64,000 nt of DNA from Candidatus Cloacimonadota bacterium (GCA_019429305.1 JAHYIR010000009.1:1837-65836), one strand, 5' to 3'. Positions 10,107 through 45,333 are shown, counted from the first letter of the stretch. The notes: generated by a model from the sequence alone, not told the origin. Translations and numbers: made by a program.

Positions 10107-10123
10107 AGAAAATATATGTTAAT

Positions 10124-10190: not shown

Positions 10191-10210
10191 TAAAAGGAAA
10201 TTCTTGAGAA

Positions 10211-10693: not shown

Positions 10694-10920
10694 CATGACC
10701 CCTCATCACTTGAGGCAATAAATACGAGAGAACCATTGCCACTATTAGTATGAAATAAATAGCAGAACACTCATGATGACACTGTATCGTTAATTAATGA
10801 GATTTCACCGCAAGATACTGTATTGCAATTATTCCCCTAATCCCTAAAACCTAACACCTAAAACCAAATTTTATATCCGTATCAATCCTCTTTTTCTGTC
10901 AAATCCGTGTTCTATTCATT

Positions 10921-10945
10921 AAAAAGGGCGGTTCGTGAACCGCCC
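10921..10945 (-). terminator. Rho-independent terminator for the minus-strand lipoprotein/TPR operon
   Basis: On the minus strand GGGCGGTTCACGAACCGCCC is followed by TTTTT. The stem is 10926-10934 / 10938-10945 and lies 50 nt after the stop at 10996. Confidence 0.7.
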
Positions 10946-10995
10946 CTACAATGTCTTTTCTTTCCTTGCCCTCTGTGCCTCCGTGGTTAATTGTT

Positions 10996-12677: not shown

Positions 12678-12832
12678 TATCTCCTCCCGTAGTTCTTATC
12701 TGTTCTTTTTTATTTTAATATGGACATTTGTCAACTACTTAATTCATATCTCCTTTGTGATGAATCAGTTACTTAACCATCACTTTATTTTATAACGTAT
12801 AACACATAATCTTGTTCCATATTACGTATTTT

Positions 12833-15230
<2,398 letters not shown>

Positions 15231-15442: not shown

Positions 15443-16804
15443 ATGATGTCCAAGATTTTGATCATCGATGATGATATCGAGATAGTTGGAGTTTTAGAGA
15501 ATATAATTGAGCAAAGCATTCCTAATTCTACTATTTATTCGTCTTTAGATGGATTAGTTGGCATGCAGATGATTAGAAAACATGAACCAGATTTGATCAT
15601 CTTAGATATCAATTTGCCTTCAGTTAGTGGCCATACAGTTTGTCGCACATTGAAATCTGATCCTTTGCTCAAGAACATCCCGATTTTGATTATTACGGGG
15701 GAGAGTTCTAATCTCAATGCTAAAGTAAAGAGTTTAGAACAGGGAGCAGAAGCTTTTCTGAAAAAACCTTTTGATATTCCTGAATTTATTGCTCAAGTTC
15801 AGTCATTGTTAAGACTGAAAGAAGCGGAAGACATAATACGAAAAGAACGCGATCTTTTAAAGATTGACGTTAAGTTGAAAGAGAAGGAATTGGAGCAGCA
15901 TTTTCAACATATTGAGCTTCTTTTCCGAGCTTTTATTGAAGTGATGGCAACATCTATTGATGCTTTGTCCATTTACAATTATGAAAGCACTCAAAGAGTA
16001 GCTGAGATGGTTAAGAATTTTCTTGTATTCATTAGTAAAGATAGTCCGGATAAATATCATCAACTTAGTCAGGATAATGAACGTCAAGAGAATCTAATTA
16101 TGGCTGCTTGGTTACATGATATCGGTAAGATAACAGTTCCATTGAGGTTAATGAATAAATTTACCAGATTAGGTGATCGCTTCCCAGAAGTAATTCAAAA
16201 GTTGGATGCGGTATATTATTATTTGAAATCAATAGATGCTGATTCCGCTTTGATAAGTAAATGTATAAAGGCATCAGAGTTAGTAAAACGGCTAAATGAT
16301 CCACAAAACAAAGTAAAAGAGAGTGATATCAAATTGTTAAAAGAATATGCTAATTTGTCCTATGTTGATCCGGCAGATGAAAAAAAACAGTGGTTAACAG
16401 ATCAAGAAGTAGAATCTCTCAGTATTAAACAGGGTACTCTGACCGAAAGTGAGCGAAAAGAGATTGAGAATCACGTTCGATTAACTGACCTGTTACTAAG
16501 TAAAATACCTTTTTCTCCTGATAAGCTCGAAATCCGTAAATGGTGTAATGATCATCATGAATTGCTTGATGGCTCGGGATACTATCAGGGTCTGAAAGGA
16601 GATGAAATATCTACAGAAACAAGAATATTGACTATTATTGATATATTCGAGGCGTTGATTTCTAATGAACGACCTTATAAAAAACACCGAACAATTGAAG
16701 AAGCTCTCATGGAGTTGGAGAAGATGGCCAGTAATGGTAAATTAGACTCTGAATTAGTCATGTTATTTAAAAAAAGTAAGGCATGGGAAATAACCGATGA
16801 ATAA
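15443..16804 (+). CDS. Response regulator (REC domain) fused to an HD-GYP-type phosphohydrolase domain
   Basis: The ATG at 15443 (or 15446) follows AGGAG at 15435-15439. The REC domain reads KILIIDDD...DLIILDINLP...KP. The HD-GYP domain has WLHDIGK and HHELLDGSGYYQG, a GYY variant of GYP. Confidence 0.8.
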   Translation: MMSKILIIDDDIEIVGVLENIIEQSIPNSTIYSSLDGLVGMQMIRKHEPDLIILDINLPSVSGHTVCRTLKSDPLLKNIPILIITGESSNLNAKVKSLEQGAEAFLKKPFDIPEFIAQVQSLLRLKEAEDIIRKERDLLKIDVKLKEKELEQHFQHIELLFRAFIEVMATSIDALSIYNYESTQRVAEMVKNFLVFISKDSPDKYHQLSQDNERQENLIMAAWLHDIGKITVPLRLMNKFTRLGDRFPEVIQKLDAVYYYLKSIDADSALISKCIKASELVKRLNDPQNKVKESDIKLLKEYANLSYVDPADEKKQWLTDQEVESLSIKQGTLTESERKEIENHVRLTDLLLSKIPFSPDKLEIRKWCNDHHELLDGSGYYQGLKGDEISTETRILTIIDIFEALISNERPYKKHRTIEEALMELEKMASNGKLDSELVMLFKKSKAWEITDE

Positions 16805-18215
16805 AGAAAAGAAGAAAACAGATTACCGAAAGATCCCTTCAGTAAACCGGATTATACTTTCTGATATTTTGTCTGATTATCGAACCAAGATTAGAGCTCC
16901 GATTTTAAAGAGGATTGTTAGTTCTAAACTTGAACAAATACGTGAAGAGATAGTTAAAGGTAACTTAGTACCAGAAGAAACAACTATTGTAAAAGAGATT
17001 AAAGAACATATTAATAAACTCTTGCGTTCATCTCTAAGTCCTGTAATTAATGCAACCGGTGTCATTTTGCATACAAATTTAGGACGAGCACCATTTGATG
17101 ATAAGATCTTGACTGAGATAATTCCCGTACTAAATGGATACAGTAATCTGGAATTTAATCTCTTAACAGCTCAGCGTGGCAGTAGAAATGTACATCTTAA
17201 TGAGCTGTTAAAAGTGCTCTTGAACTGTGAAAATAGTGTTGTGGTAAATAATAATGCAGCTGCATTAATGCTCACATTGAGAACTTTAGCTGCTGACAAA
17301 GAGGTTATAATCTCGAGGGGTGAATTAGTTGAAATAGGTGGTAGTTTTAGGATCCCTGAAATAATAGAAGCAAGTGGAGCTAAGTTGATCGAAGTAGGTA
17401 CTACGAATAGAACTCGGCTCAGTGATTATGAGAAAGCAATCACCGAAAATACAGCCCTCTATCTCAAAGTACACAAATCAAATTACTATATGTATGGATT
17501 TACGGAAGAAGTTTCTCTAAAAGAGCTTTCTAAATCAGCAAAAAAAAATCATCTTAATTTGATATATGATTTAGGTACCGGTCTCATAGACAGGCAATTG
17601 TATAAGGGTATGGAGAATGAACCAGATGCTTTGAATGGTTTGCAGGATGGAGCTGATGTTATAACTTTCAGTTGCGATAAATTACTGGGAGGAGCTCAAG
17701 CTGGTATAATTGCTGGCAGGAATAAATTTATTCAACCCATATCGAAACATCCTATGATGCGGGCATTAAGAGTCGATAAGTTGACTATAAGTCTCTTAAA
17801 TAAGGTTCTGATATCATTCCTTCATGAAAAATCTTTTATCGAGGAGTATAATCCGGTTTTTCGCTATATAAACCGTGAAATGGAAGAGATTGAAACACTA
17901 GCAAAAGCTCTCACCAGTAAACTTAAAAGTCGATATCTTGATGTTACTATCCTTGATAGTAAAGCTCAATGTGGTGGTGGAACTCTTCCATATCATTTTA
18001 TTGATAGCAAGATAGTAAAGATAACTCCAAAAGGTTGTCCAGCGAGTGTTAAAAAAAGTTTTGCAGAGAATTTGTATCATAAATTGTTAACCTCTGATGT
18101 CCCAGTATTAGGTATTTTAAGGGAAGGAACATTAATGTTTGATGTCTTAGCTCTGGAAAATAAGGATATAGAATTAATAGGTAAAAGTGTAAAACAGTTG
18201 ATACCATTTTGGTAG
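16797..18215 (+). CDS. selA: L-seryl-tRNA(Sec) selenium transferase
   Basis: Strong collinearity with E. coli SelA: PVINATGVILHTNLGRA, VVNNNAAALML, ISRGELVEIGGSFRIPE, EVGTTNRT, the PLP-lysine region FSCDKLLGGAQAGIIAG, and RALRVDKLT. The start overlaps the upstream stop by 8 nt. Confidence 0.95.
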   Translation: MNKEKKKTDYRKIPSVNRIILSDILSDYRTKIRAPILKRIVSSKLEQIREEIVKGNLVPEETTIVKEIKEHINKLLRSSLSPVINATGVILHTNLGRAPFDDKILTEIIPVLNGYSNLEFNLLTAQRGSRNVHLNELLKVLLNCENSVVVNNNAAALMLTLRTLAADKEVIISRGELVEIGGSFRIPEIIEASGAKLIEVGTTNRTRLSDYEKAITENTALYLKVHKSNYYMYGFTEEVSLKELSKSAKKNHLNLIYDLGTGLIDRQLYKGMENEPDALNGLQDGADVITFSCDKLLGGAQAGIIAGRNKFIQPISKHPMMRALRVDKLTISLLNKVLISFLHEKSFIEEYNPVFRYINREMEEIETLAKALTSKLKSRYLDVTILDSKAQCGGGTLPYHFIDSKIVKITPKGCPASVKKSFAENLYHKLLTSDVPVLGILREGTLMFDVLALENKDIELIGKSVKQLIPFW

Positions 18216-18281
18216 AATGAAGAACAGAGTCATTGTTCTTAAGTTTTTTGACAGTTAGATACTTTTATAGCGAGTGATAAA

Positions 18282-20225
18282 ATGAAACATCTTATCATGG
18301 GTACTGCTGGACATATTGATCATGGCAAAACAACTCTGATCAAACAATTGACCGGCTATGACTGTGATACTCACAAAGAAGAGAAAGAACGTGGCATAAC
18401 GATCTATCTGGGCTTTAGCCATTATACATTGTCGAACGGCAATACTATCGGAATTGTTGATGTACCCGGACATAGCGATTTCATCAATACAATGATAGCT
18501 GGTGCATCCGGAATTGATTTTGTTTTGCTGGTTATAGCGGCTGATGCCGGTATAATGCCACAAACCTTAGAGCATCTCCGGATCATGGGTATGCTGGGTA
18601 TTAAAAAAGGGATGATCGTCATCACTAAAACTGATTTGGTTGAACACGAGTATCTGCAGCTGATAACAGAAGATGTAGCTGAATTAGTAAAGGGGACATT
18701 TTTGGAGAAGTCTCCTATAATCAATTTTTCTGCAGTTACAGGTGAGGGATTACCAGAGATCATTGCAGCTCTTGAGGGAATTGAAAGTGAGATACTACCA
18801 CGACCCAATGACGAAGTTTTCCGATTGTATATTGATAGAGTGTTTAATATAACTGGTTTTGGTACAGTAGTAACCGGAACAGTACAAAGTGGTCACATCA
18901 ACAAAGATAGCAAACTTTATCTGCTACCTAAAGCAGAAAAAGTTAGGATCCGCAGATTAGAAAGATATGGTAAAGAAGTATCTGAGTTAACAGCAGGAGA
19001 TCGAGGGTCTATCAATTTAGCCGGTATTGATCGAAGCAAGATCACTAGGGGGATGTTAGTTACCGATAGAGTTTTGCAGGACACAAAATTAGTCGATGTA
19101 AAACTCTCTTTATTCCCGGAGGGGGGAGAGCTACCTTTGTGGTCGCAATGTATTTTCTTACACGGAACAGAGCAGTTTGAAGTAAGAGTTCATCTTCTGG
19201 ATACTGATAAACTTCAATCGGGTAATGAGTCAATAGCTCAGATACATTTCAAAAACTCACTCTATGCTTGTTATGGTGATAGATTTGTTATCAGAAACAG
19301 TTCTGCCGATAAGACAATTGGTGGGGGAGAGATAATTGATGTTAAACCGTTACATCATCGCCGTAGAACTGCTAAACTCTTATCTAATCTACAACGGATC
19401 CTATTAGGTAATTTAGAGGAGCTAATTGCTGCTGAAGTAAGGAAAAACGTCAATCCTTTATCTATAGAGTATTTAGCCGGTACATTTAACAAACCGGTTT
19501 CCGAATTACTCAAAATCGTAGATTCTTCTCTGCCGGAAGATATAGTAGTAGTAAGTTCTCAAGATGAGCTGTTTCTTCAAGAACAAAAAAGGTATATAAA
19601 AACAAGAAACAAGATCATTAACAATCTCACAACCTATCATAAGAATAATCCATTAGAAGAAACTGGTAGAAGTTTTGACGAGTTAATGGGTCTTTATGGA
19701 AAAGATAGAGATGAGGGTCTAGAAAAATATATAGAAATTGTTTTAGCTGATTTAGTGTCTCAGAAACAGTTAAAGAAAGTTGATAACACGTGGACTTTAT
19801 ATACTCATAATGTCAAATTTAGTGAAGAACTGGCAAATCAAGTGTACTTTGTTGAAAACTACCTACTCGATTCAGGAATGAAGACCCCTCTAATGTCTGA
19901 ACTATTACCGGCAGCGGAGAAGAAGGGTATAGATGAAAAATTACTTTATCAGATCCTCAAGCTCCTAGTTTATAGAAAAAAAGCTTACCGGATAGAAGAT
20001 AATTATATTCATAGTGATATCGTAGATAAATGCCGTATCAAGTTGTTAGAGAGTTTGTTGAATAAAAAAGAGGGAATTACAGTTGCTGAATACAGAGATA
20101 TCATTTCCGGTAACAGGAAAATTTGTTTATTGCTGTTAGCTCGCTTCGATGGTGAGGGGATAACTATCCGTAAGGGAGATTATCGGATCATAACTGAAAA
20201 AGGTCGCAAGTTACTGTTTAGTTAA
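18282..20225 (+). CDS. selB: Selenocysteine-specific translation elongation factor
   Basis: The N-terminal GTPase has GTAGHIDHGKTTL, DVPGH and TKTD. A long winged-helix C-terminal extension typical of SelB follows. It sits next to selA. Confidence 0.9.
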   Translation: MKHLIMGTAGHIDHGKTTLIKQLTGYDCDTHKEEKERGITIYLGFSHYTLSNGNTIGIVDVPGHSDFINTMIAGASGIDFVLLVIAADAGIMPQTLEHLRIMGMLGIKKGMIVITKTDLVEHEYLQLITEDVAELVKGTFLEKSPIINFSAVTGEGLPEIIAALEGIESEILPRPNDEVFRLYIDRVFNITGFGTVVTGTVQSGHINKDSKLYLLPKAEKVRIRRLERYGKEVSELTAGDRGSINLAGIDRSKITRGMLVTDRVLQDTKLVDVKLSLFPEGGELPLWSQCIFLHGTEQFEVRVHLLDTDKLQSGNESIAQIHFKNSLYACYGDRFVIRNSSADKTIGGGEIIDVKPLHHRRRTAKLLSNLQRILLGNLEELIAAEVRKNVNPLSIEYLAGTFNKPVSELLKIVDSSLPEDIVVVSSQDELFLQEQKRYIKTRNKIINNLTTYHKNNPLEETGRSFDELMGLYGKDRDEGLEKYIEIVLADLVSQKQLKKVDNTWTLYTHNVKFSEELANQVYFVENYLLDSGMKTPLMSELLPAAEKKGIDEKLLYQILKLLVYRKKAYRIEDNYIHSDIVDKCRIKLLESLLNKKEGITVAEYRDIISGNRKICLLLLARFDGEGITIRKGDYRIITEKGRKLLFS

Positions 20226-25343: not shown

Positions 25344-25696
25344 TGGTGGAGGTGGCGGGAATCGAACCCGCGTCCAGAGATAAGCCAAAAGCTGACTCTA
25401 CATACTTAGTTGTTTTTAGATCTCACTTGCTATGCAGGGAAACAATCAAACCAGTTGCAAAGAAGCCAGTCACTAATCTTAGCAGTTGAACCATGACGAC
25501 TCTCAACTGAGCAGCTGTCAATTACGACGCTTATTATCCAACCGACAGCAAATCGGACATAAACGTAGCAGCTTATGCTGCTAATGCATAATCATAGTTT
25601 GCATTTACATTTAAGTATCACCGTGTTTTACGGGTAGGTAATCTCCCCGGTATGCATCAACAATCCTCTATATCCCTGTCGAAACCGATCACCCCC
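25344..25696 (-). ncRNA. ssrA: tmRNA (SsrA), 353 nt
   Basis: The minus strand starts with GGGGGTGATCGGTTTCGACAGGGATATAGAGG and ends with GGACGCGGGTTCGATTCCCGCCACCTCCACCA, a tRNA-Ala-like acceptor/T-arm with CCA. The internal tag frame is GCA AAC TAT GAT TAT GCA TTA GCA GCA TAA = ANYDYALAA-stop (rc of 25573-25602). Confidence 0.95.
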
Positions 25697-34153: not shown

Positions 34154-35428
34154 ATGCCTTTAAGAATAGCCAGAGTCGTCAAAGGGAGTATTGCTGATAA
34201 AGCAGGAATTACCAACGATGATGTAATTATTAGTGTCAATGGAAATGTCATAGATGATTTCATAGGGCTCCAGTTTTACTGTTCAGATCCTATACTGAAT
34301 TTCGATATACAACAAGCAGACGGAAAGATAAGGAAGGTAACAATTACCCAAGATTGGCAGTCAAAATTAGGTATTGAACCGGGAAAATATCAAATACGTA
34401 AATGTACCAATAAATGCATCTTTTGTTTTATTGATCAGATGCCATCTCAACTAAGAAGAAGTCTATATCTGAAAGATGATGATTATCTTTTCTCATTTGT
34501 TTATGGAAATTATATATCTTTGAACAATCTGCAAGACAAAGACTATAAAAGAATAGTTGATGAACGGATCAGTCCCCTCTATATCTCTGTTCATACTACA
34601 AACCCGACCTTTAGAAAGCAGATCATGGGATATAAGCAAGAAATTGATATTCTGGATAAGCTTAAGTTTCTATCACAGAATAGGATTAGCTTTCATACCC
34701 AGATAGTCGTTATTCCCAAGATGAATGATAAAGAAGAATTAAGAAAGACAATCATTGACTTAACTCATCCTGATATTAACACCCTTTCAATCGGCTTAGT
34801 ACCTGTCGGATTGACAAAACATAGAGATGATCTTTATCCGTTAAGAAATATCACTGCGAATGAAGCAAAAGAAGTCATAAATTTAGCTAATTTTTTAGCA
34901 AATTCTACAGGTTTCAGTCAGATCTATTGTGCTGATGAGCTTTTTATATTATCAGGGATAGAAATACCCTCTATTCAGTATTATGACGACTTTTGTCAGA
35001 TAGAAAACGGTATTGGTATGTTAAGGGCTATGCTAAAAAACTGGCAAAGGAAACAACAAAGATTTGCTAAGCTCCTATCAGATGAATCCTTACTCTTTGT
35101 AACCGGTATACTTGCTGCCAAATACATCAGACATATTGCTGGGAGTATAAATCATATCTTTGGTGAGAAAAGAGCCGAAGTTTTGGTAGTTGAGAATAGT
35201 TTCTTTGGGGATACTGTTACGGTATCCGGTTTATTAACATATCAAGATATTGAAAGAGAATTGTCGAAGAGAGAATCTCTTCCCGATTACCTTGCCTTCA
35301 GCAGCAATATGTTCAATGTAGATGGCTTCACTTTAGATGGTATCCATCAAGATGAATTAAGTGAACGATGGCAACGGAAAGTATTAGTGATTAATGAACT
35401 ATGGACTGACTGGAAAATAATACATTAA
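34154..35428 (+). CDS. PDZ domain / DUF512 radical-SAM-like protein
   Basis: The N-terminal PDZ-like region is VVKGSIADKAGITNDDVIISVNG. The Cys cluster is CTNKCIFCFIDQMP. Length and order are typical of DUF512 proteins. Confidence 0.7.
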   Translation: MPLRIARVVKGSIADKAGITNDDVIISVNGNVIDDFIGLQFYCSDPILNFDIQQADGKIRKVTITQDWQSKLGIEPGKYQIRKCTNKCIFCFIDQMPSQLRRSLYLKDDDYLFSFVYGNYISLNNLQDKDYKRIVDERISPLYISVHTTNPTFRKQIMGYKQEIDILDKLKFLSQNRISFHTQIVVIPKMNDKEELRKTIIDLTHPDINTLSIGLVPVGLTKHRDDLYPLRNITANEAKEVINLANFLANSTGFSQIYCADELFILSGIEIPSIQYYDDFCQIENGIGMLRAMLKNWQRKQQRFAKLLSDESLLFVTGILAAKYIRHIAGSINHIFGEKRAEVLVVENSFFGDTVTVSGLLTYQDIERELSKRESLPDYLAFSSNMFNVDGFTLDGIHQDELSERWQRKVLVINELWTDWKIIH

Positions 35429-36857: not shown

Positions 36858-36885
36858 TTGACAATTTGATAAGGTTAAGTATGGT
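36858..36885 (+). promoter_or_regulatory. Sigma70-like promoter candidate (TTGACA, 16 nt spacer, TATGGT) for the oxidoreductase / ether-lipid operon
   Basis: TTGACA at 36858-36863 and TATGGT at 36880-36885, about 110 nt upstream of the ATG at 36994. Pattern match only. Confidence 0.3.
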
Positions 36886-36993
36886 AGTAATATGTGAGAA
36901 ATACTGACTTAAATATACTTAGGATGAAGTGAAACAAATATTTTATAATGACCTAGGATATTGTCAGCTGTTGGGAGTTTATTGGGAGTCTTA

Positions 36994-38028
36994 ATGAGTA
37001 TCTTAAGAATGGGATTAATAGGGTGCGGAAGAATATCCGGAAAGCACTTCGAAGCAGCAGAACAATTGGAAAATGCTGGATTTGTTACCTGTGCCGACAT
37101 CATACCAGAAAGAGCTGCAGCTGCAGCTGAGAAATACAATTTATCATCCTATTACACAGACTATCATGAAATGTTAGCCAAAGAGAAGATTGATCTGGGA
37201 GTTATTTGTGCTCCGAGCGGCTTACATCCCGAGATTGGCATAGCAGTAGCCACGAAAAAGATTCATGTCTTAACAGAAAAACCGATGGCAATAAATCTAA
37301 AATCTGCAGATGAACTGATTGAAACTTGTGAAGCTAACAAAGTTCATCTCTATGTTGTAAAGCAGAATCGCTTGAATCCAACAATGTTGCTATTAAAGAA
37401 TGCAATACTTAAGAACAGGTTCGGCAAGATATATTTAGTACAATCTAATGTTTTTTGGCAAAGACCTCAAACTTACTACGATATGGCAGATTGGCGGGGA
37501 ACATGGCAATATGATGGTGGAGCATTTCTCAATCAGGCGAGTCATTATGTTGATGCTCTTTATTGGTTGATTGGACCTGTTAATTCAGTTATGGCAGAGT
37601 CTGCTACTATGGCGAGGAAGATCGAAGCAGAAGATACCGGTGTTGCCTTATTAAAATTTAGTAATGGAGTTATAGGTTCAATCAATGTAACCATGCTCAC
37701 TTATCCTAAAAATTACGAAGGTTCTATAACAGTAATAGGTGAAAAAGGAACAGTAAAAGTAGGGGGCATAGCATTAAATAAGATAGATAAATGGGAATTT
37801 GAAGATTATGATGATGATGATCGTTTACTGGAAGAGGCAAATTATCAACCATTGACAGTCTACGGTTCTGGTCATTTACCCTATTACTTAAATGTGATAG
37901 AATCACTTAAAGGAAAGACTAATCCTTATACTAATGGACGTGATGGTAGAAGTTCCTTGGAAATCATCTTAGCTTTTTATGAATCGGTTAAAAGTGGGAA
38001 GAAGATAAATCTTCCTTTAAAAGTATGA
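36994..38028 (+). CDS. Gfo/Idh/MocA family NAD(P)-dependent oxidoreductase
   Basis: ORF is 36961..38028. The ATG at 36994 gives MSILRMGLIGCGRISGKH, an N-terminal Rossmann GxGxxG. EKP and the C-terminal alpha/beta domain are typical of the family. Confidence 0.8.
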   Translation: MSILRMGLIGCGRISGKHFEAAEQLENAGFVTCADIIPERAAAAAEKYNLSSYYTDYHEMLAKEKIDLGVICAPSGLHPEIGIAVATKKIHVLTEKPMAINLKSADELIETCEANKVHLYVVKQNRLNPTMLLLKNAILKNRFGKIYLVQSNVFWQRPQTYYDMADWRGTWQYDGGAFLNQASHYVDALYWLIGPVNSVMAESATMARKIEAEDTGVALLKFSNGVIGSINVTMLTYPKNYEGSITVIGEKGTVKVGGIALNKIDKWEFEDYDDDDRLLEEANYQPLTVYGSGHLPYYLNVIESLKGKTNPYTNGRDGRSSLEIILAFYESVKSGKKINLPLKV

Positions 38029-38073
38029 ACTAGAGTAGACAAACTACAGTACTTCAAATAAGAGAGGTAGAAT

Positions 38074-38964
38074 TTGGTATTGGAAAGATATTTTGAGTCA
38101 AGACAATTGATTGTTGATAAGGCACTAAGGGACTACTTAACGCCGATAAAAACCTATCCTGAGCAGTTATATGAGGCAATGCACTATGCTCTTTTTTCTG
38201 GTGGTAAACGGTTGCGCCCGATACTTTTTTTTGCTGCCTATGAAATGTTAAAAGAGAAGAAAAATGCCGCAATATTACAGTCTGTTGTACCTGCTGCCTG
38301 TGCTTTAGAAATGGTTCATACAGCATCCTTGATACATGATGATCTGCCCATTATCGATAATTCGGATTTAAGGCGTAACGAACTAAGCTGTCATAAGAAG
38401 TTTGACGAAGCAACAGCAATCTTAGCGGGAGATGCTTTGCTGACTAAAGCATTTGAGGTTTTAACCGATATAAACAATGCTTCGAAGGCAATAAGCTGCA
38501 TCGGAGTATTGGCTCGAGCTGTTTCTACTCGAGGAATGATCGGTGGTCAGACTGTTGACGTATTAGTTACTAGTACCAAAGCAAGAATAAATGTTCTGAA
38601 GTATATCCATATGAAGAAGACAGGATCGTTATTACAAGCAGCTATGGACTTAGCTTGTGTTTTAGCTGACGCAGAGGAGAATGTTATCTTAGCGTTAGAG
38701 AGTTTTGCTCTCAATGTCGGATTAGCATATCAGGTTATAGATGATATTCTTGATGAGATTGGAACGAGTGAGATATTGGGCAAAGAGCCCGGAGAAGATG
38801 CTCGTAACAACAAAGCTACTTATGCAGCGATACTTGGCTTAGATAAAGCGCGGAAAACTGCTGAGAAATTGCTGGATGATTCTTACAAACTGATTAAAAA
38901 TATGCCTAACAACGAAGTTTTAGTCGAATACATTTACATGATAAGAGAAAGAATCCCGATATGA
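38074..38964 (+). CDS. Short-chain trans-polyprenyl diphosphate synthase, predicted geranylgeranyl diphosphate synthase
   Basis: TTG start after AGAGAGG. The FARM is LIHDDLPIIDNSDLRRN and the SARM is QVIDDILD. Residues just upstream of the FARM are small (HTASLIHDD) rather than the aromatic residue of FPP synthases (E. coli IspA has YSLIHDD), which favours a C20 product. Confidence 0.8.
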   Translation: MVLERYFESRQLIVDKALRDYLTPIKTYPEQLYEAMHYALFSGGKRLRPILFFAAYEMLKEKKNAAILQSVVPAACALEMVHTASLIHDDLPIIDNSDLRRNELSCHKKFDEATAILAGDALLTKAFEVLTDINNASKAISCIGVLARAVSTRGMIGGQTVDVLVTSTKARINVLKYIHMKKTGSLLQAAMDLACVLADAEENVILALESFALNVGLAYQVIDDILDEIGTSEILGKEPGEDARNNKATYAAILGLDKARKTAEKLLDDSYKLIKNMPNNEVLVEYIYMIRERIPI

Positions 38965-39788
38965 AAAATTATCTTCTAATTATAAGACCGCTTAACTGTC
39001 TGTTCATTGGATTTGCTGTCCTTGTTGGAGGTTGGCTCAACACGGAAGTTGAGAGCTATCCTGTACTATTAATAGCAATGTTAGTAGCGATGTTAATCGG
39101 TGCAGGTGGTTATGTAATTAACGATTTCTTCGATATAAGAATTGATTCGATCAATAAACCTCATCGGTTATTACCCAGAGGGGTATTCAAACCGGAATTT
39201 GCTTTCATGTATGCCCTCTTCTTATTCATGTTCGGGATATCGATCAGCATTTTTACGATCAACTTCTGGGCGATTTTTATAGCAGTTCTCAATTCGATAC
39301 TTCTCTATCATTATGCCAAATCTTTGAAGAACACAATTCTTTGGGGTAACTTGGTTATCTCTTATATCACAGGTAGTGCTTTATTGTATGGTGCCGTAAT
39401 TACTAACAATATTCTTAATATACTGCCTCTTATTATATTTACAATTTTGTATACTTTCGTGAGAGAGATCATTAAAGATGCTGAGGATGAAAAGGCAGAT
39501 AGAATAATCGGTGTTAAGACTTATGCTACAGCATTCGGACAAAAGCAAGCTGTTTATATTTCTCTAATACCAGCTTTACTTCTTGCTATCAGTTTGTATA
39601 TTTATTATATTGAGAAACTAATATCGAAAAGTCTCTTCGAGATAGTTATATTAGTCTATTTGATCCCTTTGATTTTTATTTACCTATATCTGCTAATCAA
39701 GATTAATCCGGAAAGGTTACACCGCAGCTCAGTATTTATTAAGATCCATATGTTGATTTTATTGATAACATATATCATAGTAATTTGA
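38961..39788 (+). CDS. UbiA-family prenyltransferase resembling digeranylgeranylglyceryl phosphate (DGGGP) synthase
   Basis: The ATGA start overlaps the GGPPS stop. There are about 8 TM helices. The first Asp-rich motif is NDFFDIRIDSINKPHRLLPRG (archaeal DGGGPS pattern NDyfD.e.D.iNkP.RPiPsG) and the second is KDAEDEKADRIIGVKT. It sits between GGPPS and GGGPS. Confidence 0.75.
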   Translation: MKNYLLIIRPLNCLFIGFAVLVGGWLNTEVESYPVLLIAMLVAMLIGAGGYVINDFFDIRIDSINKPHRLLPRGVFKPEFAFMYALFLFMFGISISIFTINFWAIFIAVLNSILLYHYAKSLKNTILWGNLVISYITGSALLYGAVITNNILNILPLIIFTILYTFVREIIKDAEDEKADRIIGVKTYATAFGQKQAVYISLIPALLLAISLYIYYIEKLISKSLFEIVILVYLIPLIFIYLYLLIKINPERLHRSSVFIKIHMLILLITYIIVI

Positions 39789-39844
39789 GGTTGAGAAACT
39801 TTTTACCTCAGATAGTTCAATAATAAATTAAGGATAGAATTGGG

Positions 39845-40636
39845 ATGAGTACTTTAGACAGTATTAACGGAAATTTGTATTCTAAAGATCAGAATGACAA
39901 GATCTACTCACAAATCTTACAAATGCCCAAACCTGCCTATTTTGTGCTTATAGATCCTGATAAAACTGGAGTTAAAGAATCTTTAAGCTTAGCAGTTTTA
40001 GCAGAACAAAAAGGTGTTGATGGGCTTTTAATAGGGAGCAGTTTGCTTCTTCACGACAATCTAGATAACTGCTTGCGTGAAATGAAAAAACTGGTCAAAA
40101 TCCCTATCATAATCTTTCCTGGTCTTTTGAATACTTATTCACCATTAGCTGATGCTATATTATTCCTTAATATGATCAGCAGCCGTAATGCTCAGTTATT
40201 GATAGGTGAGCAGGTAAGAGCAGCTCCTTTGCTAAAGAAATTAGGGTTGGAGTCGATAAGTACTGCCTACATACTCATTGAATCGGGGAAATTGACGTCT
40301 GTCCAATATGTCAGCAACAGCTTGCCCATTCCGAGAGACAAACCCGATATCCTAATAGCCCATGTTTTAGCAGCTGAGTATATTGGGATGAAGATGATCT
40401 ATTTAGAAACTGGTAGTGGAGCCAATCAACCAGTTCCTCTGGAAATGATAAAACAGGTAAAGTTAACAACAGATCTGCCGATTATCGTCGGTGGAGGAAT
40501 AAGAAAAGCTGATACAGCATCAGAAATTGCTGCAGTCGGAGCAGATATTATTGTAACCGGTACAGTCATGGAAGACGAAGAGAATCACCAGTTATTAGCT
40601 GATTTTGTGGAAGCAATTCATAGATGGCGAAAATGA
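39845..40636 (+). CDS. Geranylgeranylglyceryl phosphate synthase (GGGPS/PcrB family, TIM barrel)
   Basis: FVLIDPDK near the N-terminus, then GVDGLLIGSS, IIFPG, IYLETGSG, and the phosphate-binding IIVGGGIRKADTASEIAAVGADIIVTG. Length and order match the PcrB/GGGPS family. Confidence 0.85.
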   Translation: MSTLDSINGNLYSKDQNDKIYSQILQMPKPAYFVLIDPDKTGVKESLSLAVLAEQKGVDGLLIGSSLLLHDNLDNCLREMKKLVKIPIIIFPGLLNTYSPLADAILFLNMISSRNAQLLIGEQVRAAPLLKKLGLESISTAYILIESGKLTSVQYVSNSLPIPRDKPDILIAHVLAAEYIGMKMIYLETGSGANQPVPLEMIKQVKLTTDLPIIVGGGIRKADTASEIAAVGADIIVTGTVMEDEENHQLLADFVEAIHRWRK

Positions 40637-41430
40637 TAGATATCCATTCCCATATACTTCCAGGTGTTGATGATGGTTCACCTGATTTAGAGACTTCTTT
40701 GCAATATCTTAAATTGATTCAGGATAGCGGGGTCTCTGATCTTTTTCTTACACCACATTATATTCCTGGCGAGTATAATAATACCAAAAATAATATTCTG
40801 GATAAATGTTATTCTTTGAAGTTAGCAGCAGAGCAGGAGAATATCACCATCAGACTACATTGCGGATTGGAGCTCTATTTGACCGATTCGCAAGCCCAGA
40901 ATATTAACTTTAGTGATTTTCGTATGGGAGATAGTGACTACATATTGGTCGAGACCGCACTCAACGGTTTTCCAATGAATCTATTAGACGTACTATTTTA
41001 TATGGTCAGAAAGGGTTATAAACCAATATTTGCTCATCCGGAAAGGTATGTAAACATAATTGAAGATATCTCAGTTGCCGAAGACCTCATATATCGAAAT
41101 GTCTATCTACAGGCAAATTCCGGTAGTTTTTTAGGTCATTATGGTCCGACTATTTCTAAGACAGTCTGGAAGTTGTTTCATAGAGGATTTTTGCATTTCA
41201 TAGCTTCTGATGAACATTGTATCAGCAAATCGTATTCTTTATTGAAACTCAGAAATATGCTCTTGGATAATTATTCAGAAGAGCAAATAAATACCCTCAT
41301 ATATGATAATGCGGCGAAGATTATTTCTAATGAAAAAATTGCTCTATTTAATCAAAAAATATCACCTCTAAACGAGAGAAAGAATTCGGGAAATATTCTG
41401 CATAAATTGCTAAGTTTTCTTGAGAGATGA
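40633..41430 (+). CDS. PHP-domain metal-dependent phosphoesterase (CpsB/YwqE-like)
   Basis: ORF-track start is 40624. The ATG at 40633 forms an ATGA overlap with the GGGPS stop and gives the family-typical MIDIHSHILPGVDDGS, followed by TPHY, FAHPERY and ASDEHC metal ligands. Confidence 0.8.
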   Translation: MIDIHSHILPGVDDGSPDLETSLQYLKLIQDSGVSDLFLTPHYIPGEYNNTKNNILDKCYSLKLAAEQENITIRLHCGLELYLTDSQAQNINFSDFRMGDSDYILVETALNGFPMNLLDVLFYMVRKGYKPIFAHPERYVNIIEDISVAEDLIYRNVYLQANSGSFLGHYGPTISKTVWKLFHRGFLHFIASDEHCISKSYSLLKLRNMLLDNYSEEQINTLIYDNAAKIISNEKIALFNQKISPLNERKNSGNILHKLLSFLER

Positions 41431-42410
41431 ATAAAAGTATCTTACTAACAGGTGCAACCGGATTTATTGGTCGGAATGTAGCCCGAGTATTAGCTTCTAA
41501 AAAACAAGATTTCGCAGTACTGGTCAGACCCGGTACGAATAGTACCAAATTAAAAGATTTAACCGATAAATGTGAGATAGTTGAACTGGATTTGTCATCA
41601 GTTGATTCTTTAAAGGATTTTTTAGATAAGAGCAAATTCGAGACGGTAATTCATATTGGTGCTTTACGAGGTGGTCGTAAATACCCTCAGAAAACCTATT
41701 ACGATACGAATGTCAAAGCTACTGAACAGATCATTTTAAACTGTCTCAAGAATGATTCCAAATTACTTTTTTGTTCGTCTGTAGGTGTCTATGGTGCTAT
41801 TCCTCAAGAATTGCCTGCAAATGTTAATACGGTATATCAATCTGATAATTTTTATCATTACACAAAGATTAAAGCAGAGTCTATCATCAAAAAATATGCT
41901 CTTTCCGGACTAAAGAGTGTCATCTTGAGACCGACAATAACTTATGGTGAAAATGATTATGGGTTTCCCTATACATTAGTGAAGTTGATTCACAGAAAGC
42001 TTCTTCTTTTACCTGATCTGGCAATCAGAATCCACTTAGCGCATATTAATACTGTCGTTGAAGCATTCTACAAGCTTGCAGTAGAGGATTATACCGGGAA
42101 TAAGATCTACAATATTGCGGATCCTTCACCAGTTAAACTAAAAGAACTTGTGGATTTCATCAGTCATAGATTGAGAGACAATCCTTATCCTGAAAACAGA
42201 TATATCTCTGCCAGAAAATTTCGCAAAATAACAACTTTATGCCAAAGATACGGATTCAACAGCTTACATACCAAGCTCAGATTGATAAATTATAGCTGGT
42301 TCTATGATGTTACACCAAGCTACAAGGAGCTGACCATCCAACCCAGAAAAACCATTCCTGAATTCAAGATTGTTATAGACTGGTACAAGAAAATTCATCA
42401 TATCAAGTAG
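41427..42410 (+). CDS. Extended SDR, NAD-dependent epimerase/dehydratase family
   Basis: ATGA overlap with the upstream stop. ILLTGATGFIGRNV is the Rossmann motif and YHYTKIKAE is the catalytic YxxxK. Confidence 0.8.
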   Translation: MNKSILLTGATGFIGRNVARVLASKKQDFAVLVRPGTNSTKLKDLTDKCEIVELDLSSVDSLKDFLDKSKFETVIHIGALRGGRKYPQKTYYDTNVKATEQIILNCLKNDSKLLFCSSVGVYGAIPQELPANVNTVYQSDNFYHYTKIKAESIIKKYALSGLKSVILRPTITYGENDYGFPYTLVKLIHRKLLLLPDLAIRIHLAHINTVVEAFYKLAVEDYTGNKIYNIADPSPVKLKELVDFISHRLRDNPYPENRYISARKFRKITTLCQRYGFNSLHTKLRLINYSWFYDVTPSYKELTIQPRKTIPEFKIVIDWYKKIHHIK

Positions 42411-42420
42411 GTATTTAATA

Positions 42421-43263
42421 ATGGCTATCCCGATAATAACCAATTGGAAGAACTATTTTACAGATGAGAATGAAGGGCTCGGCTCTTCTTACGAAAGAGT
42501 AATTATTAATCAGCTTCTGGAGAGGGTCTGCGATCAGTATAGTATTCAAAAGGTTTTAGAGGCACCTCTGTTTGGATTCACCGGTTTATCAGGTATTAAT
42601 AGTATGAATCTAGCGCTTAAAGGTAAAGAAGTTGCCCTGATAGATAGTAATAGTGAACGTTTAGTAATGGTCGAAACCATCTGGCAGGAACGAAAACTAC
42701 CTGTTGATATCAAATACTCACAAGATTTTTCGATCTTGCCTTATGATGATGCAGAGTTTGATCTCTGTTGGAATTTTTCAGCCCTTTGGTTTGTTAAAGA
42801 TTTAAGCAGTTTTCTCGCGGAGTTTAACCGCCTGGCTAAGAAAGTGATTTTATTGATAGTTCCTAATAGAAGCGGTTTAGGATTCATTTTTCAGTCTCTA
42901 AGCAGTTCCAGGGGTTATAAAGATATAGTTAATACTAAATGGATCAGACCTGCTTGTTTTTCCAAGATTTTATTAGATCTTGGTTGGAAAGAAGTCGAAC
43001 ATGGTTTGATAGATTGCCCTCCTTGGCCTGATATAGGGATGAAAAAAGAAGTTTTAGCCAAGAAACTTTTCTTAAGTTTTTTGCTTGATAGGCATACTGA
43101 GCAACAGCATCAGAATTCTATAATGGACTATTATCGTGGAGATGATGACCAATTCCCCGAAAAAATGATGAAATACAATCGCTTGGAAAAAAAACTGCCA
43201 AATTTATTGAAACGGTTTTGGTCACATCATCATTATTATCTATACGTAAAGAAAGGCAGGTAA
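42421..43263 (+). CDS. Methyltransferase-fold (class I SAM-MT-like) protein with atypical motif I
   Basis: VLEAPLFGFTGLSGINSMNLALKGKEVALIDSN resembles motif I plus the acidic loop. FDLCWNFSALWFV resembles the motif II/III region. This is a weak, by-eye assignment. Confidence 0.45.
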   Translation: MAIPIITNWKNYFTDENEGLGSSYERVIINQLLERVCDQYSIQKVLEAPLFGFTGLSGINSMNLALKGKEVALIDSNSERLVMVETIWQERKLPVDIKYSQDFSILPYDDAEFDLCWNFSALWFVKDLSSFLAEFNRLAKKVILLIVPNRSGLGFIFQSLSSSRGYKDIVNTKWIRPACFSKILLDLGWKEVEHGLIDCPPWPDIGMKKEVLAKKLFLSFLLDRHTEQQHQNSIMDYYRGDDDQFPEKMMKYNRLEKKLPNLLKRFWSHHHYYLYVKKGR

Positions 43264-43334
43264 TAGATATTTGACTGAGGAAAGATTATTATCTCTAAAG
43301 ATAATAGTCCGATTCTTATTTATCTCGAACTGAT

Positions 43335-44336
43335 ATGAAAAAGAAGATACTGACTATAGTAATAGGCACATTAATCGGCATTATTTTTACAGCTATTTGG
43401 CTGCAATTAGTTGATCTCCGTACGATCTCCCAGATGATCAAAGATTTGAAATTGCAGTATGTGATCATTAGTATACTATTTTATTTATCTGCTTATTTTA
43501 TTCGTTCTTTAAGATGGAATCTCCTGCTTAAAAGAGTTCAACCGTTATCAAAAATGAGATCTTATCTGATCATGATGGCAGGAAACTTCACTAATTATCT
43601 GATTCCTCTCCGAGTTGGAGAATTGATGCGCTGCTATTTCATCAAGAAAATGCACGGAACCAGAATGACGAAAACTCTACCATCTGTTTTTGTTGATAAA
43701 CTCTTTGACTCGATCGGGATTTTGTTCGTTTTATTGCTTGTCCCGCTTCTTTCGGTCTCTTTACCTGCTACTTTGAATATCTTGCTAATATTGATTTCTT
43801 TGCTATTGATAATTGGTTGTATAATCCTCATATCAGCCATTTATGCCGAAAGCAAGATAGTAAGTTTGTTAAAAAAACTCTTTTTTTTCATTCCGACTAA
43901 ATATGAGGTTAAGTTAGATGAGACTCTATCTCTGTTTGTTGAAGGTTTAGCAGTTTTCAAAGACCATAAGCAACTGCTGCTCCCGGTGATACTCTTTTCG
44001 ATCATCGCCATCTTCTTCGATAGTTTTTTCTTTTTTGCTCTCTTTTTAGCATTTGGAATTAGCATAAACTATTTTTACATTTTACTCGGTTATACTCTGA
44101 TCTACCTGTCCTATATAATTCCTCATCCTCCAGCTCAGTTGGGTAGCAATGAGTTATTGATGTTTCTTATCTTTGCAGCCGGTTTTGGCATGCAGGCAGA
44201 TAAAGCAGGGGCCATTATGCTTTTTTCTCATATCTTGACAGGATTGATCATTGTAACTATCGGGTTAATCTCTTACAGTTACAGTGGAGTACAATTATTG
44301 ACGATAATTAATAAAGGAGAAGTTTTAAATGAGTAA
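43335..44336 (+). CDS. Flippase-like (UPF0104 / MprF-type transmembrane domain) membrane protein
   Basis: About 8 TM helices. The N-terminal pattern is LQYVIISILFYLSAYFIRSLRWNLLL...MAGNFTNYLIPLRVGELMRCYF, typical of the lysylphosphatidylglycerol-synthase TM (flippase-like) family. Confidence 0.65.
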   Translation: MKKKILTIVIGTLIGIIFTAIWLQLVDLRTISQMIKDLKLQYVIISILFYLSAYFIRSLRWNLLLKRVQPLSKMRSYLIMMAGNFTNYLIPLRVGELMRCYFIKKMHGTRMTKTLPSVFVDKLFDSIGILFVLLLVPLLSVSLPATLNILLILISLLLIIGCIILISAIYAESKIVSLLKKLFFFIPTKYEVKLDETLSLFVEGLAVFKDHKQLLLPVILFSIIAIFFDSFFFFALFLAFGISINYFYILLGYTLIYLSYIIPHPPAQLGSNELLMFLIFAAGFGMQADKAGAIMLFSHILTGLIIVTIGLISYSYSGVQLLTIINKGEVLNE

Positions 44337-45333
44337 CGAAAAGAACAGGATTGCACTTCTGGAAAAATTAAAGACCGACAAAGAGAAGATCTTGCAAGAA
44401 TTAAGAAAAGCGATAATAGGACAGGATAAGGTAATCGAAGAGGTTATGATAGCCCTCTTTGCTAAAGGGCACTGTCTGGTTGAAGGTGTACCCGGATTGG
44501 CAAAGACTATGTTGATCTCCTCACTTGCTAAAGCGTTGAATCTCAAGTTCAGCCGGATTCAATTTACACCCGACTTAATGCCTTCCGATATTACCGGAAC
44601 CGATATTCTGGCGGAAAGTAAGGCAGATGGGAAAAGATATTTCGAATACATCAAAGGTCCTATTTTTTCCAATATCATCTTAGCCGACGAGATCAACAGA
44701 ACACCCCCCAAGACCCAATCCGCTCTCCTACAGGCAATGCAGGAATATCAGGTAACCGCCGGAAACAGCACCTATAATCTTGATCAACCGTTTCTGGTAT
44801 TGGCTACGCAAAACCCCATTGAACAAGAAGGCACCTATCCACTACCGGAAGCACAATTAGATAGATTTATGTTTAATATCAATATCTACTATCCTTCTTA
44901 TGAAGAAGAACGTGAAATAGTTATCAAAACTACCAGTTCTGATCCGATTAATATAGAACCGGTGCTTACCGCTGACGAAATACTTGAAATGCAGAAAATG
45001 ATCCTTACTTTGCCAGTCAGTGAACATGTTCTTGATTATGCCGTAAAACTTGCCCGGGCTACCAGACCTGATTATCCGGAGGCACAAGACTTTATTAAAA
45101 GATGGGTTAGTTGGGGTGCCGGTCCTCGTGCTTCTCAATATCTGGTCTTAGCAGCCAAAACCAAAGCTGCTCTCGATGGGAGAGCGACTCCAGCGGAAGA
45201 AGATGTCAGAAGGGTAGCGGTGATAGTTCTGCAACATAGAGTGATCGTTTCCTTTGCTGCTGAAGCTGAAGGTATGAAAGCCAAGACTGTCGTGGAGAAA
45301 CTTATCAAGCATCTGGATGAATCAGCTAAATAG
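44329..45333 (+). CDS. MoxR-family AAA+ ATPase
   Basis: The start overlaps the upstream stop by 8 nt. Motifs are IIGQDKVIEEVMIALFAKGHCLVEGVPGLAKT (Walker A), ILADEINR (Walker B), ATQNPIEQEGTYPLPEAQLDRF and GAGPRAS. Confidence 0.9.
   Translation: MSNEKNRIALLEKLKTDKEKILQELRKAIIGQDKVIEEVMIALFAKGHCLVEGVPGLAKTMLISSLAKALNLKFSRIQFTPDLMPSDITGTDILAESKADGKRYFEYIKGPIFSNIILADEINRTPPKTQSALLQAMQEYQVTAGNSTYNLDQPFLVLATQNPIEQEGTYPLPEAQLDRFMFNINIYYPSYEEEREIVIKTTSSDPINIEPVLTADEILEMQKMILTLPVSEHVLDYAVKLARATRPDYPEAQDFIKRWVSWGAGPRASQYLVLAAKTKAALDGRATPAEEDVRRVAVIVLQHRVIVSFAAEAEGMKAKTVVEKLIKHLDESAK

Follow-up and report, generated by a model that had tools for sequence, protein, structure and literature searches.

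A predicted archaeal-type ether-lipid gene trio in a Candidatus Cloacimonadota genome and its conserved, modular gene neighbourhood

Does a short bacterial operon hold the core of the pathway by which archaea assemble their diether lipids, and do the genes around it belong to the same pathway? The question is raised by three adjacent genes in a 64,000-nt stretch of DNA (from here: the window) from a Candidatus Cloacimonadota metagenome-assembled genome (MAG) in GenBank, where the entries MBW6516047 to MBW6516049 already carry the corresponding names. The predicted products are an isoprenyl diphosphate synthase (IDS), a UbiA-superfamily homologue of DGGGPS and a GGGPS of the PcrB family. Bacteria able to make archaeal-type diethers matter for the 'lipid divide' and for the question of whether mixed membranes are stable, a significance for which the credit belongs to the discovery published in 2021. 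We consider it highly probable that the trio represents the archaeal core pathway for diether lipids in the form found in Cloacimonadota, located on a bacterial chromosome.

The co-localisation of GGGPS, DGGGPS and polyprenyl synthase genes in Ca. Cloacimonetes was reported from the Black Sea MAGs NIOZ-UU1 to UU4 by Villanueva et al. 2021 (ISME J; PMC7852524). In that study, the Cloacimonetes GGGPS orthologue forms GGGP in vitro and accepts both G1P and G3P, the orthologous GGGPS and DGGGPS together yield PG-unsat(8)-archaeol in E. coli cells supplying GGPP and G1P, and the DGGGPS orthologue leads to PG-archaeol in E. coli only when GGGPS is present. The three genes of NIOZ-UU3 were positive in RT-PCR, and the genes are transcribed in the Black Sea. 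The published MAGs are described as lacking EgsA/AraM and CarS and as containing GGR; no isoprenoid diether is reported from a Cloacimonadota cell, and the enrichments gave no isolate (supplement of PMC7852524). These activities are those of orthologues from the same phylum; for the GGGPS and DGGGPS of the window they are predicted. The remark in a preliminary description of this DNA, that the pair had been reported from this phylum before, was right. Because the trio in Cloacimonadota, along with its biochemistry, has been in the literature since 2021, the window is a further example and not a discovery. It adds a well-assembled case, a 70-kb contig on which the operon is uninterrupted. Further additions are a collinear, modular block in eight loci, a variant locus (L094) and the near-adjacency of the two ether-bond enzymes in Poribacteria.

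Table 1 Genes of the ether-lipid locus and its flanks, with predicted products
Feature	Position	Strand	Length and start	Profile matches	GenBank entry
Gfo/Idh/MocA oxidoreductase, WlbA-like	36994..38028	+	Start moved from TTG 36961 to ATG 36994	PF01408, PF02894	MBW6516046.1 (344-aa form)
IDS gene	38074..38964	+	296 aa, TTG start	PF00348, 193 bits	MBW6516047.1, 'polyprenyl synthetase family protein'
UbiA-superfamily DGGGPS homologue	38961..39788	+	275 aa	PF01040, 122.6 bits	MBW6516048.1, 'geranylgeranylglycerol-phosphate geranylgeranyltransferase'
Predicted group II GGGPS	39845..40636	+	263 aa	PF01884, 153.8 bits (cut-off 23.9)	MBW6516049.1
PHP-family phosphoesterase, YwqE/CpsB type	40633..41430	+		PF19567, 175 bits	MBW6516050.1, 'hypothetical protein', alternative start 40624
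Extended SDR, NAD-dependent epimerase/dehydratase family	41427..42410	+		PF01370, 112 bits	
Class I SAM-dependent methyltransferase	42421..43263	+		PF08241, 34.5 bits	
LPG_synthase_TM / TIGR00374 flippase-like membrane protein	43335..44336	+		PF03706, 138 bits; TIGR00374, 118 bits	
MoxR-type AAA+ ATPase	44329..45333	+		PF07726, PF20030	

The locus is densely organized (Table 1). The preliminary description had given the three reading frames, an ATGA overlap between the first two and a 56-nt gap before the third, all of which proved correct to the base; the motifs it quoted (HTASLIHDDLPIIDNSD, NDFFDIRIDSINKPHRLLPRG, KDAEDEKADR, FVLIDPDK and IIVGGGIR) are all present in the translations, and its family assignments were recovered in Pfam searches (polyprenyl_synt 193 bits, UbiA 123 bits, PcrB 154 bits). 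Read directly from the sequence, the ATG of the UbiA gene (38961-63) overlaps the TGA of the IDS gene (38962-64), further ATGA overlaps occur at the GGGPS/PHP and PHP/SDR junctions, and the spacer between the UbiA and GGGPS genes covers 39789-39844. The ribosome-binding site AGAGAGG is located 7 nt upstream of the TTG start of the IDS gene, which follows 46 nt behind the Gfo/Idh/MocA gene. Scans whose counts did not exceed shuffled expectation detected one promoter-like element, TTGACA-16-TATGGT, at 36858-36885 and, from 36900 to 42750 on the + strand, no terminator-like sites. In an Rfam scan, no regulatory RNA turned up close to the operon. As the genes share one strand, have short or overlapping junctions with no terminator-like sites between them and keep a conserved order, we propose that the three genes and their neighbours form one tightly packed transcription unit, in which the Gfo/Idh/MocA gene is probably the first gene.

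The arrangement is conserved within the phylum. The order IDS-DGGGPS-GGGPS recurs in seven other Cloacimonadota loci, the UbiA proteins of which are 37-54% identical to that of the window; with the same order kept at such identity, the arrangement is not due to chance. The collinear block, found in eight Cloacimonadota loci, extends further and reads (WlbA-like oxidoreductase)-IDS-DGGGPS-GGGPS-PHP-SDR-methyltransferase-flippase-like-(MoxR). A literature search returned no description of this extended cluster, and the available parts of PMC7852524 do not describe the downstream PHP-SDR-methyltransferase-flippase-like genes. The NIOZ-UU locus described there resembles the window in the phylum, in the three genes on one scaffold and in the lack of G1PDH or CarS; on the NIOZ-UU3 scaffold, however, PriA lies near these genes, as it does in locus L082, whereas the window has the WlbA-like Gfo/Idh/MocA gene upstream. 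The block is modular. In locus L094 the IDS and the PHP-SDR-methyltransferase-flippase-like-MoxR genes are kept and DGGGPS and GGGPS are absent; in locus L087 the SDR-methyltransferase pair stands amid GT2, GT-C, MBOAT and sulfotransferase genes, a glycosyltransferase-rich setting. Since L094 keeps the IDS without its two partners, this enzyme probably has another role as well.

The first gene of the trio is predicted to encode a short-chain trans-isoprenyl diphosphate synthase, namely a type II GGPP synthase. Its first Asp-rich motif (FARM) reads DDLPIIDNSD, with a two-residue insertion (DDxxxxD), and its second (SARM) reads DDILD (DDxxD), as in type II enzymes. The protein scored 297.8 against the NCBIfam FPPsyn subfamily model, above the cut-off of 275, and 265.6 against the CrtE GGPPS equivalog, below the cut-off of 460, so that the curated GGPPS threshold is not reached; its PDB matches mix FPPS and GGPPS. 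The position -5 relative to the FARM is a documented determinant of chain length (PMC4244643). At positions -5/-4 the window protein has Ala-Ser, without an aromatic residue, and these residues are kept in all nine block-linked IDS examined (the window and eight orthologues); E. coli IspA has Tyr-Ser there, and so does the second IDS found in NIOZ-UU1, a Cloacimonetes MAG. From this comparison with the Tyr-Ser of FPP synthases we infer a C20 product, which agrees with the earlier prediction from the FARM context. The IDS has the bacterial and plant type II form, unlike archaeal GGPPS, which is type I.

For the UbiA-family protein, hidden Markov models, PDB matches and distances all support archaeal DGGGPS as the nearest relative. 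The best NCBIfam model was PRK12882 (DGGGPS) with 191.5 bits, which lies below the equivalog cut-off of 296; ChlG, UbiA and CyoE followed with 61.8, 45.7 and 40.9 bits, and no MenA match was obtained in NCBIfam. PGAP named the protein DGGGPS despite the score under the cut-off. The best PDB match, to the DGGGPS of M. jannaschii (6m31), covers the full length (residues 1-273; 6e-37), and the next one is to ChlG (7e-10). In the motifs NDxxDxxxD and DxxxD, the residues N54, D55, D58, D62, D176 and D180 are invariant among 18 relatives. Beyond Cloacimonadota, the next-best relatives in the species genomes searched are methanogen DGGGPS enzymes with 33-36% identity. The Kimura distance was 1.33 to the M. 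jannaschii enzyme vs 2.45-3.0 to ChlG, MenA, UbiA and CyoE, which speaks against a grouping with MenA, UbiA or chlorophyll synthases, the outcome that would have contradicted the proposed archaeal pattern. A neighbour-joining tree recovered a Cloacimonadota clade with 85% bootstrap support, and its split between ingroup and outgroup received 42%, with deep nodes and the sister group left without resolution.

The third protein is supported by its sequence as a group II GGGPS and not a heptaprenyl PcrB. It scored above the cut-offs of the GGGP synthase models TIGR01769 (215.8 bits, cut-off 161.55) and NF003198 (278.1, cut-off 247), compared to 31 bits for GGGPS_Afulg and only 29.6 bits for the HepGP synthase model. 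Its best PDB matches were the group II structures 4mm1 (7e-55), 4jej (5e-50) and 6nke (5e-41), while the B. subtilis PcrB structures 3vzx and 1viz matched at about 1e-9. The protein does not group with the heptaprenyl-specific group I PcrB, the outcome that would have contradicted the preliminary description. The blocks LIDPD, FPG, YLETGSGA, VGGGIR and VTGT, which from published structures we take to be the phosphate-binding and catalytic ones, are identical or near-identical in 4mm1. Opposite the Trp that is mutated in entry 5nf1, presumably the hexamer anchor W141, the window protein has another aromatic residue, Tyr.

According to this assignment, the operon IDS would convert DMAPP/FPP to geranylgeranyl diphosphate (C20), the soluble TIM-barrel GGGPS would transfer one geranylgeranyl group to glycerol phosphate, with G1P preferred, and the membrane-bound DGGGPS would add the second to give digeranylgeranylglyceryl phosphate (unsaturated archaetidic acid). 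For the stereochemistry of the glycerol in vivo and for the place of the product as a bulk membrane lipid, we can only infer. Later processing might proceed by the bacterial CdsA/PgsA enzymes or by the PHP, SDR, methyltransferase and flippase-like proteins. The statement that the locus holds the three activities needed for a diether core makes it look more complete than it is, as the window does not encode a source of G1P, the activation with CDP or the saturation of the chains. G1P dehydrogenase (EgsA/AraM), the CDP-archaeol synthase CarS and geranylgeranyl reductase (GGR) were not found among the Pfam-annotated genes covering most of the window, and tblastn gave no match for the reductase there. 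The GGGPS and DGGGPS match the M. thermautotrophicus group II enzyme (4mm1) and the M. jannaschii enzyme (6m31) over the full length with conserved motifs, but the host is a bacterium that according to the literature also has a fatty-acid lipid pathway, and the genes for G1PDH, CarS and GGR are not neighbours.

Upstream of the trio, the Gfo/Idh/MocA protein matches the PDB entries 3q2k and 3q2i at 1e-113, both of which we take to be WlbA UDP-GlcNAcA 3-dehydrogenases, and its gene precedes IDS in 7 of the 8 block loci, with PriA taking its place in L082; in view of this match and this substitution, it was rejected as the missing G1P dehydrogenase. Downstream, the PHP protein matches YwqE in the PDB (8e-28) and shares its N-terminal MIDIHSHILPGVDDG motif. 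In L095 as in all eight block loci, the PHP gene comes next after GGGPS and in most cases overlaps it or starts within a few bases of it. For the SDR, HpnA was the best NCBIfam match (77 bits, far under the cut-off); its gene is collinear in every block locus, and in L087, L094 and L095 it forms a pair with the methyltransferase gene. A profile search with the methyltransferase gave 677 matches, the named ones from Cloacimonadota/Cloacimonetes except one labelled just 'bacterium'. A sequence search of the PDB returned no match for it, and with its AF2 model (pLDDT 86) Foldseek returned from the PDB generic class I methyltransferases alone, at a TM of about 0.5, for which reason a substrate assignment from the fold was abandoned. 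The flippase-like gene is present in all eight block loci and in L094 and is missing from L095.

It is distinctly unlikely, in our estimate, that the PHP, HpnA-like SDR, methyltransferase and MprF/HpnL-like flippase-type proteins supply the missing steps as lineage-specific ether-lipid enzymes. In one version of this idea, (D)GGGP may be converted to a neutral or methylated diether and exported to the outer membrane or the outer leaflet. In a second version, PHP may cleave a phosphodiester, for instance the head group of phosphatidylglycerol, to release sn-glycerol-1-phosphate, which would solve the problem of the absent G1PDH; as of 2026, no bacterial G1P-forming routes besides G1PDH/AraM are known (PMC13400652).

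Three other accounts of the locus compete with, or restrict, the core-pathway reading. For two of the proteins, the curated thresholds do not lead to a clear name, since the IDS passes the FPPsyn model and fails the CrtE model and the UbiA protein stays below the DGGGPS cut-off. With the mixed FPPS and GGPPS matches in the PDB, this would fit an ordinary FPP synthase next to an enzyme that prenylates a quinone or another aromatic acceptor, with no diether formed. We regard such a misnaming as highly improbable: the block-linked IDS all lack Tyr at -5 and a Cloacimonetes MAG has a separate IDS that does contain it, the UbiA and ChlG models reach 46-62 bits compared to 191 for DGGGPS, with no MenA hit and a full-length match to the M. 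jannaschii enzyme, GGGPS is adjacent, and the orthologous pair was reported as active in E. coli (PMC7852524). A rather unlikely alternative retains the ether-bond chemistry and has the trio make a minor, specialised prenylglycerol lipid instead of a bulk membrane phospholipid, with PHP dephosphorylating GGGP or DGGGP, the SDR and methyltransferase modifying the free head and the flippase-like protein translocating the product. B. subtilis offers a precedent, where the heptaprenylglyceryl phosphate made by PcrB is dephosphorylated and then acetylated. That PcrB/AraM system likewise uses a bacterial PcrB-family enzyme to attach a polyprenyl chain to glycerol-1-phosphate through an ether bond, but its PcrB is group I and C35-specific, unlike the GGGPS of the window with its low HepGP synthase score, and B. 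subtilis makes no diether because it lacks a DGGGPS partner. B. subtilis produces little of this ether lipid, the function of which is unknown (PMC13400652). The constant position of PHP behind GGGPS, translationally coupled by overlap, the collinearity of the four downstream genes with the trio across 37-54% UbiA identity and the absence of CarS and GGR from the window all favour a minor lipid. Against it, PHP is of the typical YwqE/CpsB type, a family known as protein-tyrosine phosphatases, the methyltransferase fold search provided no clue to a substrate, and the orthologues fed the normal phospholipid head-group pathway in E. coli (PMC7852524).

L094 and L087 also count against that alternative, because they show that the PHP-SDR-methyltransferase-flippase module does not need ether lipids. 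They lead to the view, for which we see a little less than an even chance, that the downstream genes and the WlbA-like oxidoreductase are envelope glycan genes merely sharing the neighbourhood, with only the trio as a functional unit. The strong 3q2k/3q2i match (granted that these are WlbA), the CpsB/YwqE-like PHP, the membership of the SDR in the NDP-sugar epimerase/dehydratase family, the glycosyltransferase-rich setting of the SDR-methyltransferase pair in L087 and the separation of the blocks in L094 and L095 are consistent with it. On the other side, three 4-nt start/stop overlaps and the lack of terminator-like sites favour co-transcription in the window, eight loci keep the gene order, and glycosyltransferase, aminotransferase and BY-kinase genes are all absent from the block. 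For experiments, the conserved modular neighbourhood offers a defined gene set with which the E. coli expression system already established can be extended, and L094 offers a natural 'deletion' variant; together they could help to settle the native lipid and the source of its glycerol phosphate.

At the distal end of the block, the first 8 nt of the MoxR gene lie within the end of the flippase-like gene in the window, and the two genes adjoin in 7 of the 8 block loci, with four genes between them in L082; although MoxR is syntenic, its function is probably a separate one. Outside Cloacimonadota, DGGGPS-GGR-GGGPS clusters are present in the bacterial loci L054, L061 and L073, which come from Poribacteria and an unclassified bacterium; this independent clustering favours the core-pathway reading. 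As in the window, the two ether-bond enzymes are near-adjacent on one strand in a bacterium; unlike in the window, GGR lies between them, and there is neither an upstream IDS nor a PHP-SDR-methyltransferase module. L073 differs further in that two GT2 genes and a deacetylase come next.

The preliminary description had placed three adjacent genes for an archaeal-type ether-lipid core on one strand of the window. Their coordinates, collected in the table, agree exactly with the open reading frames, which score strongly against the Pfam families polyprenyl_synt, UbiA and PcrB. The ATGA overlap of genes 1 and 2 and the 56-nt spacer before gene 3 were both seen at the junctions, and all the peptide motifs quoted there were found in the ORF translations. 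GenBank already lists the proteins of the surrounding block (MBW6516046-53, from a 'Candidatus Cloacimonetes bacterium' MAG) and names those of the trio polyprenyl synthetase family protein (gene 1), geranylgeranylglycerol-phosphate geranylgeranyltransferase (gene 2) and geranylgeranylglyceryl/heptaprenylglyceryl phosphate synthase (gene 3). At JGI, the same DNA is contained in contig Ga0369713_1000218 (70.5 kb) of metagenome 3300033232.

Features of the window and of related loci (L-numbers)
Sequence	Feature	Coordinates	Strand	ORF length
Window	TPP riboswitch	151-243	-	
Window	SelA and SelB genes	16797-20225	+	
Window	tmRNA gene	25344-25696	-	
Window	PDZ-radical SAM-DUF512 protein	34154-35428	+	
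Window	Conserved block	36994-45333		
Window	Gene 1, polyprenyl_synt (Pfam)	38074-38964	+, as genes 2 and 3	296 aa
Window	Gene 2, UbiA (Pfam)	38961-39788	+, as genes 1 and 3	275 aa
Window	Gene 3, PcrB (Pfam)	39845-40636	+, as genes 1 and 2	263 aa
L002	SDR gene, two ORFs	12414-13401		
L004	Tandem SDR paralogues	12298-14301		
L083	Lone DGGGPS-like UbiA gene	10001-10840		
L087	SDR-MT pair	9012-10840		
L094	Block lacking DGGGPS and GGGPS	9005-14598		
L095	Transposase and partial block	9216-13623		

On sequence comparison, gene 3 is assigned to the group II GGGP synthases (GGGPS), because it passes two curated NCBIfam cut-offs, that of the GGGP synthase equivalog (TIGR01769, 215.8 vs 161.6) and that of NF003198 (278 vs 247), and in the PDB it comes closest to two group II structures, 4mm1 from M. 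thermautotrophicus (7e-55) and 4jej from Flavobacterium johnsoniae (5e-50), while the models for heptaprenylglyceryl phosphate (HepGP) synthase and for the A. fulgidus-type (group I) enzymes reach only about 30 bits each. With B. subtilis PcrB far behind in the PDB search (about 1e-9), the proposed PcrB/GGGPS identity holds.

Gene 2 had been proposed as a UbiA prenyltransferase of the DGGGP synthase (DGGGPS) type rather than MenA or UbiA, and DGGGPS is indeed the best match by NCBIfam, PDB and tree distance. The DGGGPS model is the top NCBIfam match (191.5 bits), followed by chlorophyll synthase (62), UbiA (46) and heme O synthase (41), with MenA absent from the matches; the score lies under the cut-off of 296, so that the curated threshold does not by itself place gene 2 in the family. 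In the PDB, gene 2 matches M. jannaschii DGGGPS at 6e-37 over the full length and ChlG comes second at 7e-10. The two Asp-rich motifs do not vary across 18 relatives. Searching one genome for each species brought up three other Cloacimonadota and next methanogen and other archaeal DGGGPS with 33-36% identity, intermixed with homologues from the FCB group, Poribacteria and Gemmatimonadota. Neighbour joining on 91 sequences, for which E. coli UbiA, MenA and CyoE plus one ChlG served as outgroups, united the Cloacimonadota proteins in one clade (85% bootstrap) and put gene 2 at a distance of 1.33 from the M. jannaschii enzyme vs 2.45-3.0 from the outgroups. The deeper nodes were not resolved and we therefore claim no sister group for this clade.

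Gene 1 belongs to a bacterial short-chain family of isoprenyl diphosphate synthases (IDS) in which FPP and GGPP synthases intermix; it scores over the NCBIfam threshold for the FPP-synthase subfamily and under that for CrtE. Product length is set by the residue at position -5 relative to the first Asp-rich motif, and E. coli IspA Tyr79 mutants make GGPP (PMC4244643). As the preliminary description had noted, small residues occupy the site that is aromatic in FPP synthases: the window IDS and eight orthologues from the same gene block have Ala-Ser there, compared with Tyr-Ser in E. coli IspA and in the second IDS of the Black Sea Cloacimonetes MAG NIOZ-UU1. Because of this replacement, a C20 (or longer) product is the best prediction.

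The interpretation of the trio as an archaeal-type ether-lipid core is thus supported, and the suspicion that the GGGPS/DGGGPS pair is not new was justified. Villanueva et al. 2021 (PMC7852524) report co-localised GGGPS and DGGGPS in all four Black Sea Cloacimonetes MAGs and amplified and resequenced a scaffold region in which PriA and a polyprenyl synthase accompany both genes. The three lipid genes were all found to be transcribed, and the purified Cloacimonetes GGGPS converts GGPP and G1P to GGGP and also accepts G3P. Both genes occur in 24% of 46 Cloacimonadota genomes (Johnson and Hug). The window trio is a further instance of a known system. PMC7852524 describes the MAGs as being without G1PDH/AraM and without CarS, and as of 2026 G1PDH/AraM was the only G1P-forming route known in bacteria (PMC13400652). 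Within the 64-kb window no G1PDH, CarS or GGR was found.

A Gfo/Idh/MocA oxidoreductase gene lies directly upstream of the trio. Its product matches the PDB entries 3q2k and 3q2i, both WlbA UDP-GlcNAcA 3-dehydrogenases, at 1e-113, which takes it off the list of candidates for the G1P dehydrogenase that is missing here. For its start, ATG 36994 is the most likely codon: it has GGAG in front of it, and the NCBI call and the orthologues begin there. The JGI call and the mechanical ORF start at TTG 36961 and so probably include 11 codons too many (region 36961-36996). A PDZ-radical SAM-DUF512 gene (TIGR03279, 301 bits, under the cut-off of 575), located two genes before the block, is kept only in L002 among the compared loci.

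In PMC7852524, bacterial co-localisation of GGGPS and DGGGPS seemed confined to Cloacimonetes in 2021. Larger databases modestly widen this: in four Poribacteria loci (L054, L061, L071, L074) and an unclassified bacterium (L073) the two genes share a strand and are separated by about 1.2-1.7 kb. The intervening gene encodes a geranylgeranyl reductase in L054, L061 and L073 and a SpoU methylase in L071; in L073, two GT2 genes and one for a polysaccharide deacetylase come next. In other FCB bacteria the genes are usually unlinked, as in L083, where the lone DGGGPS-like UbiA gene stands between Omp85 and RNase HII, near CdsA (CTP_transf_1) and cis-prenyltransferase genes, and its product groups with Ignavibacteriales in the tree.

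What the window adds to the published trio is the conserved block around it, of which no description was found in the literature. Eight Cloacimonadota loci (the window, L002, L003, L004, L082, L084, L088 from Ca. Tenebribacter mawsonii, and L089) share the collinear order (Gfo/Idh/MocA)-IDS-DGGGPS-GGGPS-PHP phosphoesterase-extended SDR-methyltransferase (MT)-LPG_synthase_TM flippase-like protein-(MoxR). The window has ATGA overlaps at GGGPS/PHP and PHP/SDR as well, three altogether. A scan that did not exceed chance, hence weak evidence, gave a promoter-like site upstream of the oxidoreductase gene and no terminator-like site on the + strand of the block up to 42750. The SDR gene of L002 is split, either by a frameshift or by misassembly; at the same position L004 has a tandem pair of SDR paralogues.

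One reading is that the accessory genes process the ether lipid. We consider this unlikely, and the genes are not strictly dependent on the ether-lipid enzymes because three loci show the block to be modular. In L094 a GGPPS-type IDS (64% identical, Ala-Ser retained) is followed after 111 nt by PHP-SDR-MT-flippase-MoxR, with both DGGGPS and GGGPS missing. In L095 an IS200-type transposase precedes GGGPS-PHP-SDR-MT-MoxR, and in L087 the SDR-MT pair is all that is present of the block, in a glycosyltransferase-rich locus with MBOAT, radical SAM and sulfotransferase genes. The accessory genes may instead be envelope-glycan genes that share neighbourhood and transcript with the trio, a reading we hold tentatively; the two readings together do not take up the whole probability. 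The PHP protein is YwqE/CpsB-like; the predicted fold of the MT gives no clue to its substrate, and every named match of the latter comes from Cloacimonadota, save a single record that says just 'bacterium'. As a lead, the conserved PHP-SDR-MT-flippase module is modest and testable.

Elsewhere, the window encodes C25 peptidases, secretion-tail domains, SelA/SelB and tmRNA, a content consistent with the FCB-group assignment. SelA and SelB adjoin, so the organism uses selenocysteine. The tmRNA (Rfam 182 bits; ARAGORN) has the tag peptide ANYDYALAA. The TPP riboswitch (Rfam RF00059) scores 61.9 bits, over the gathering score, and the gene downstream of it leaves the window.
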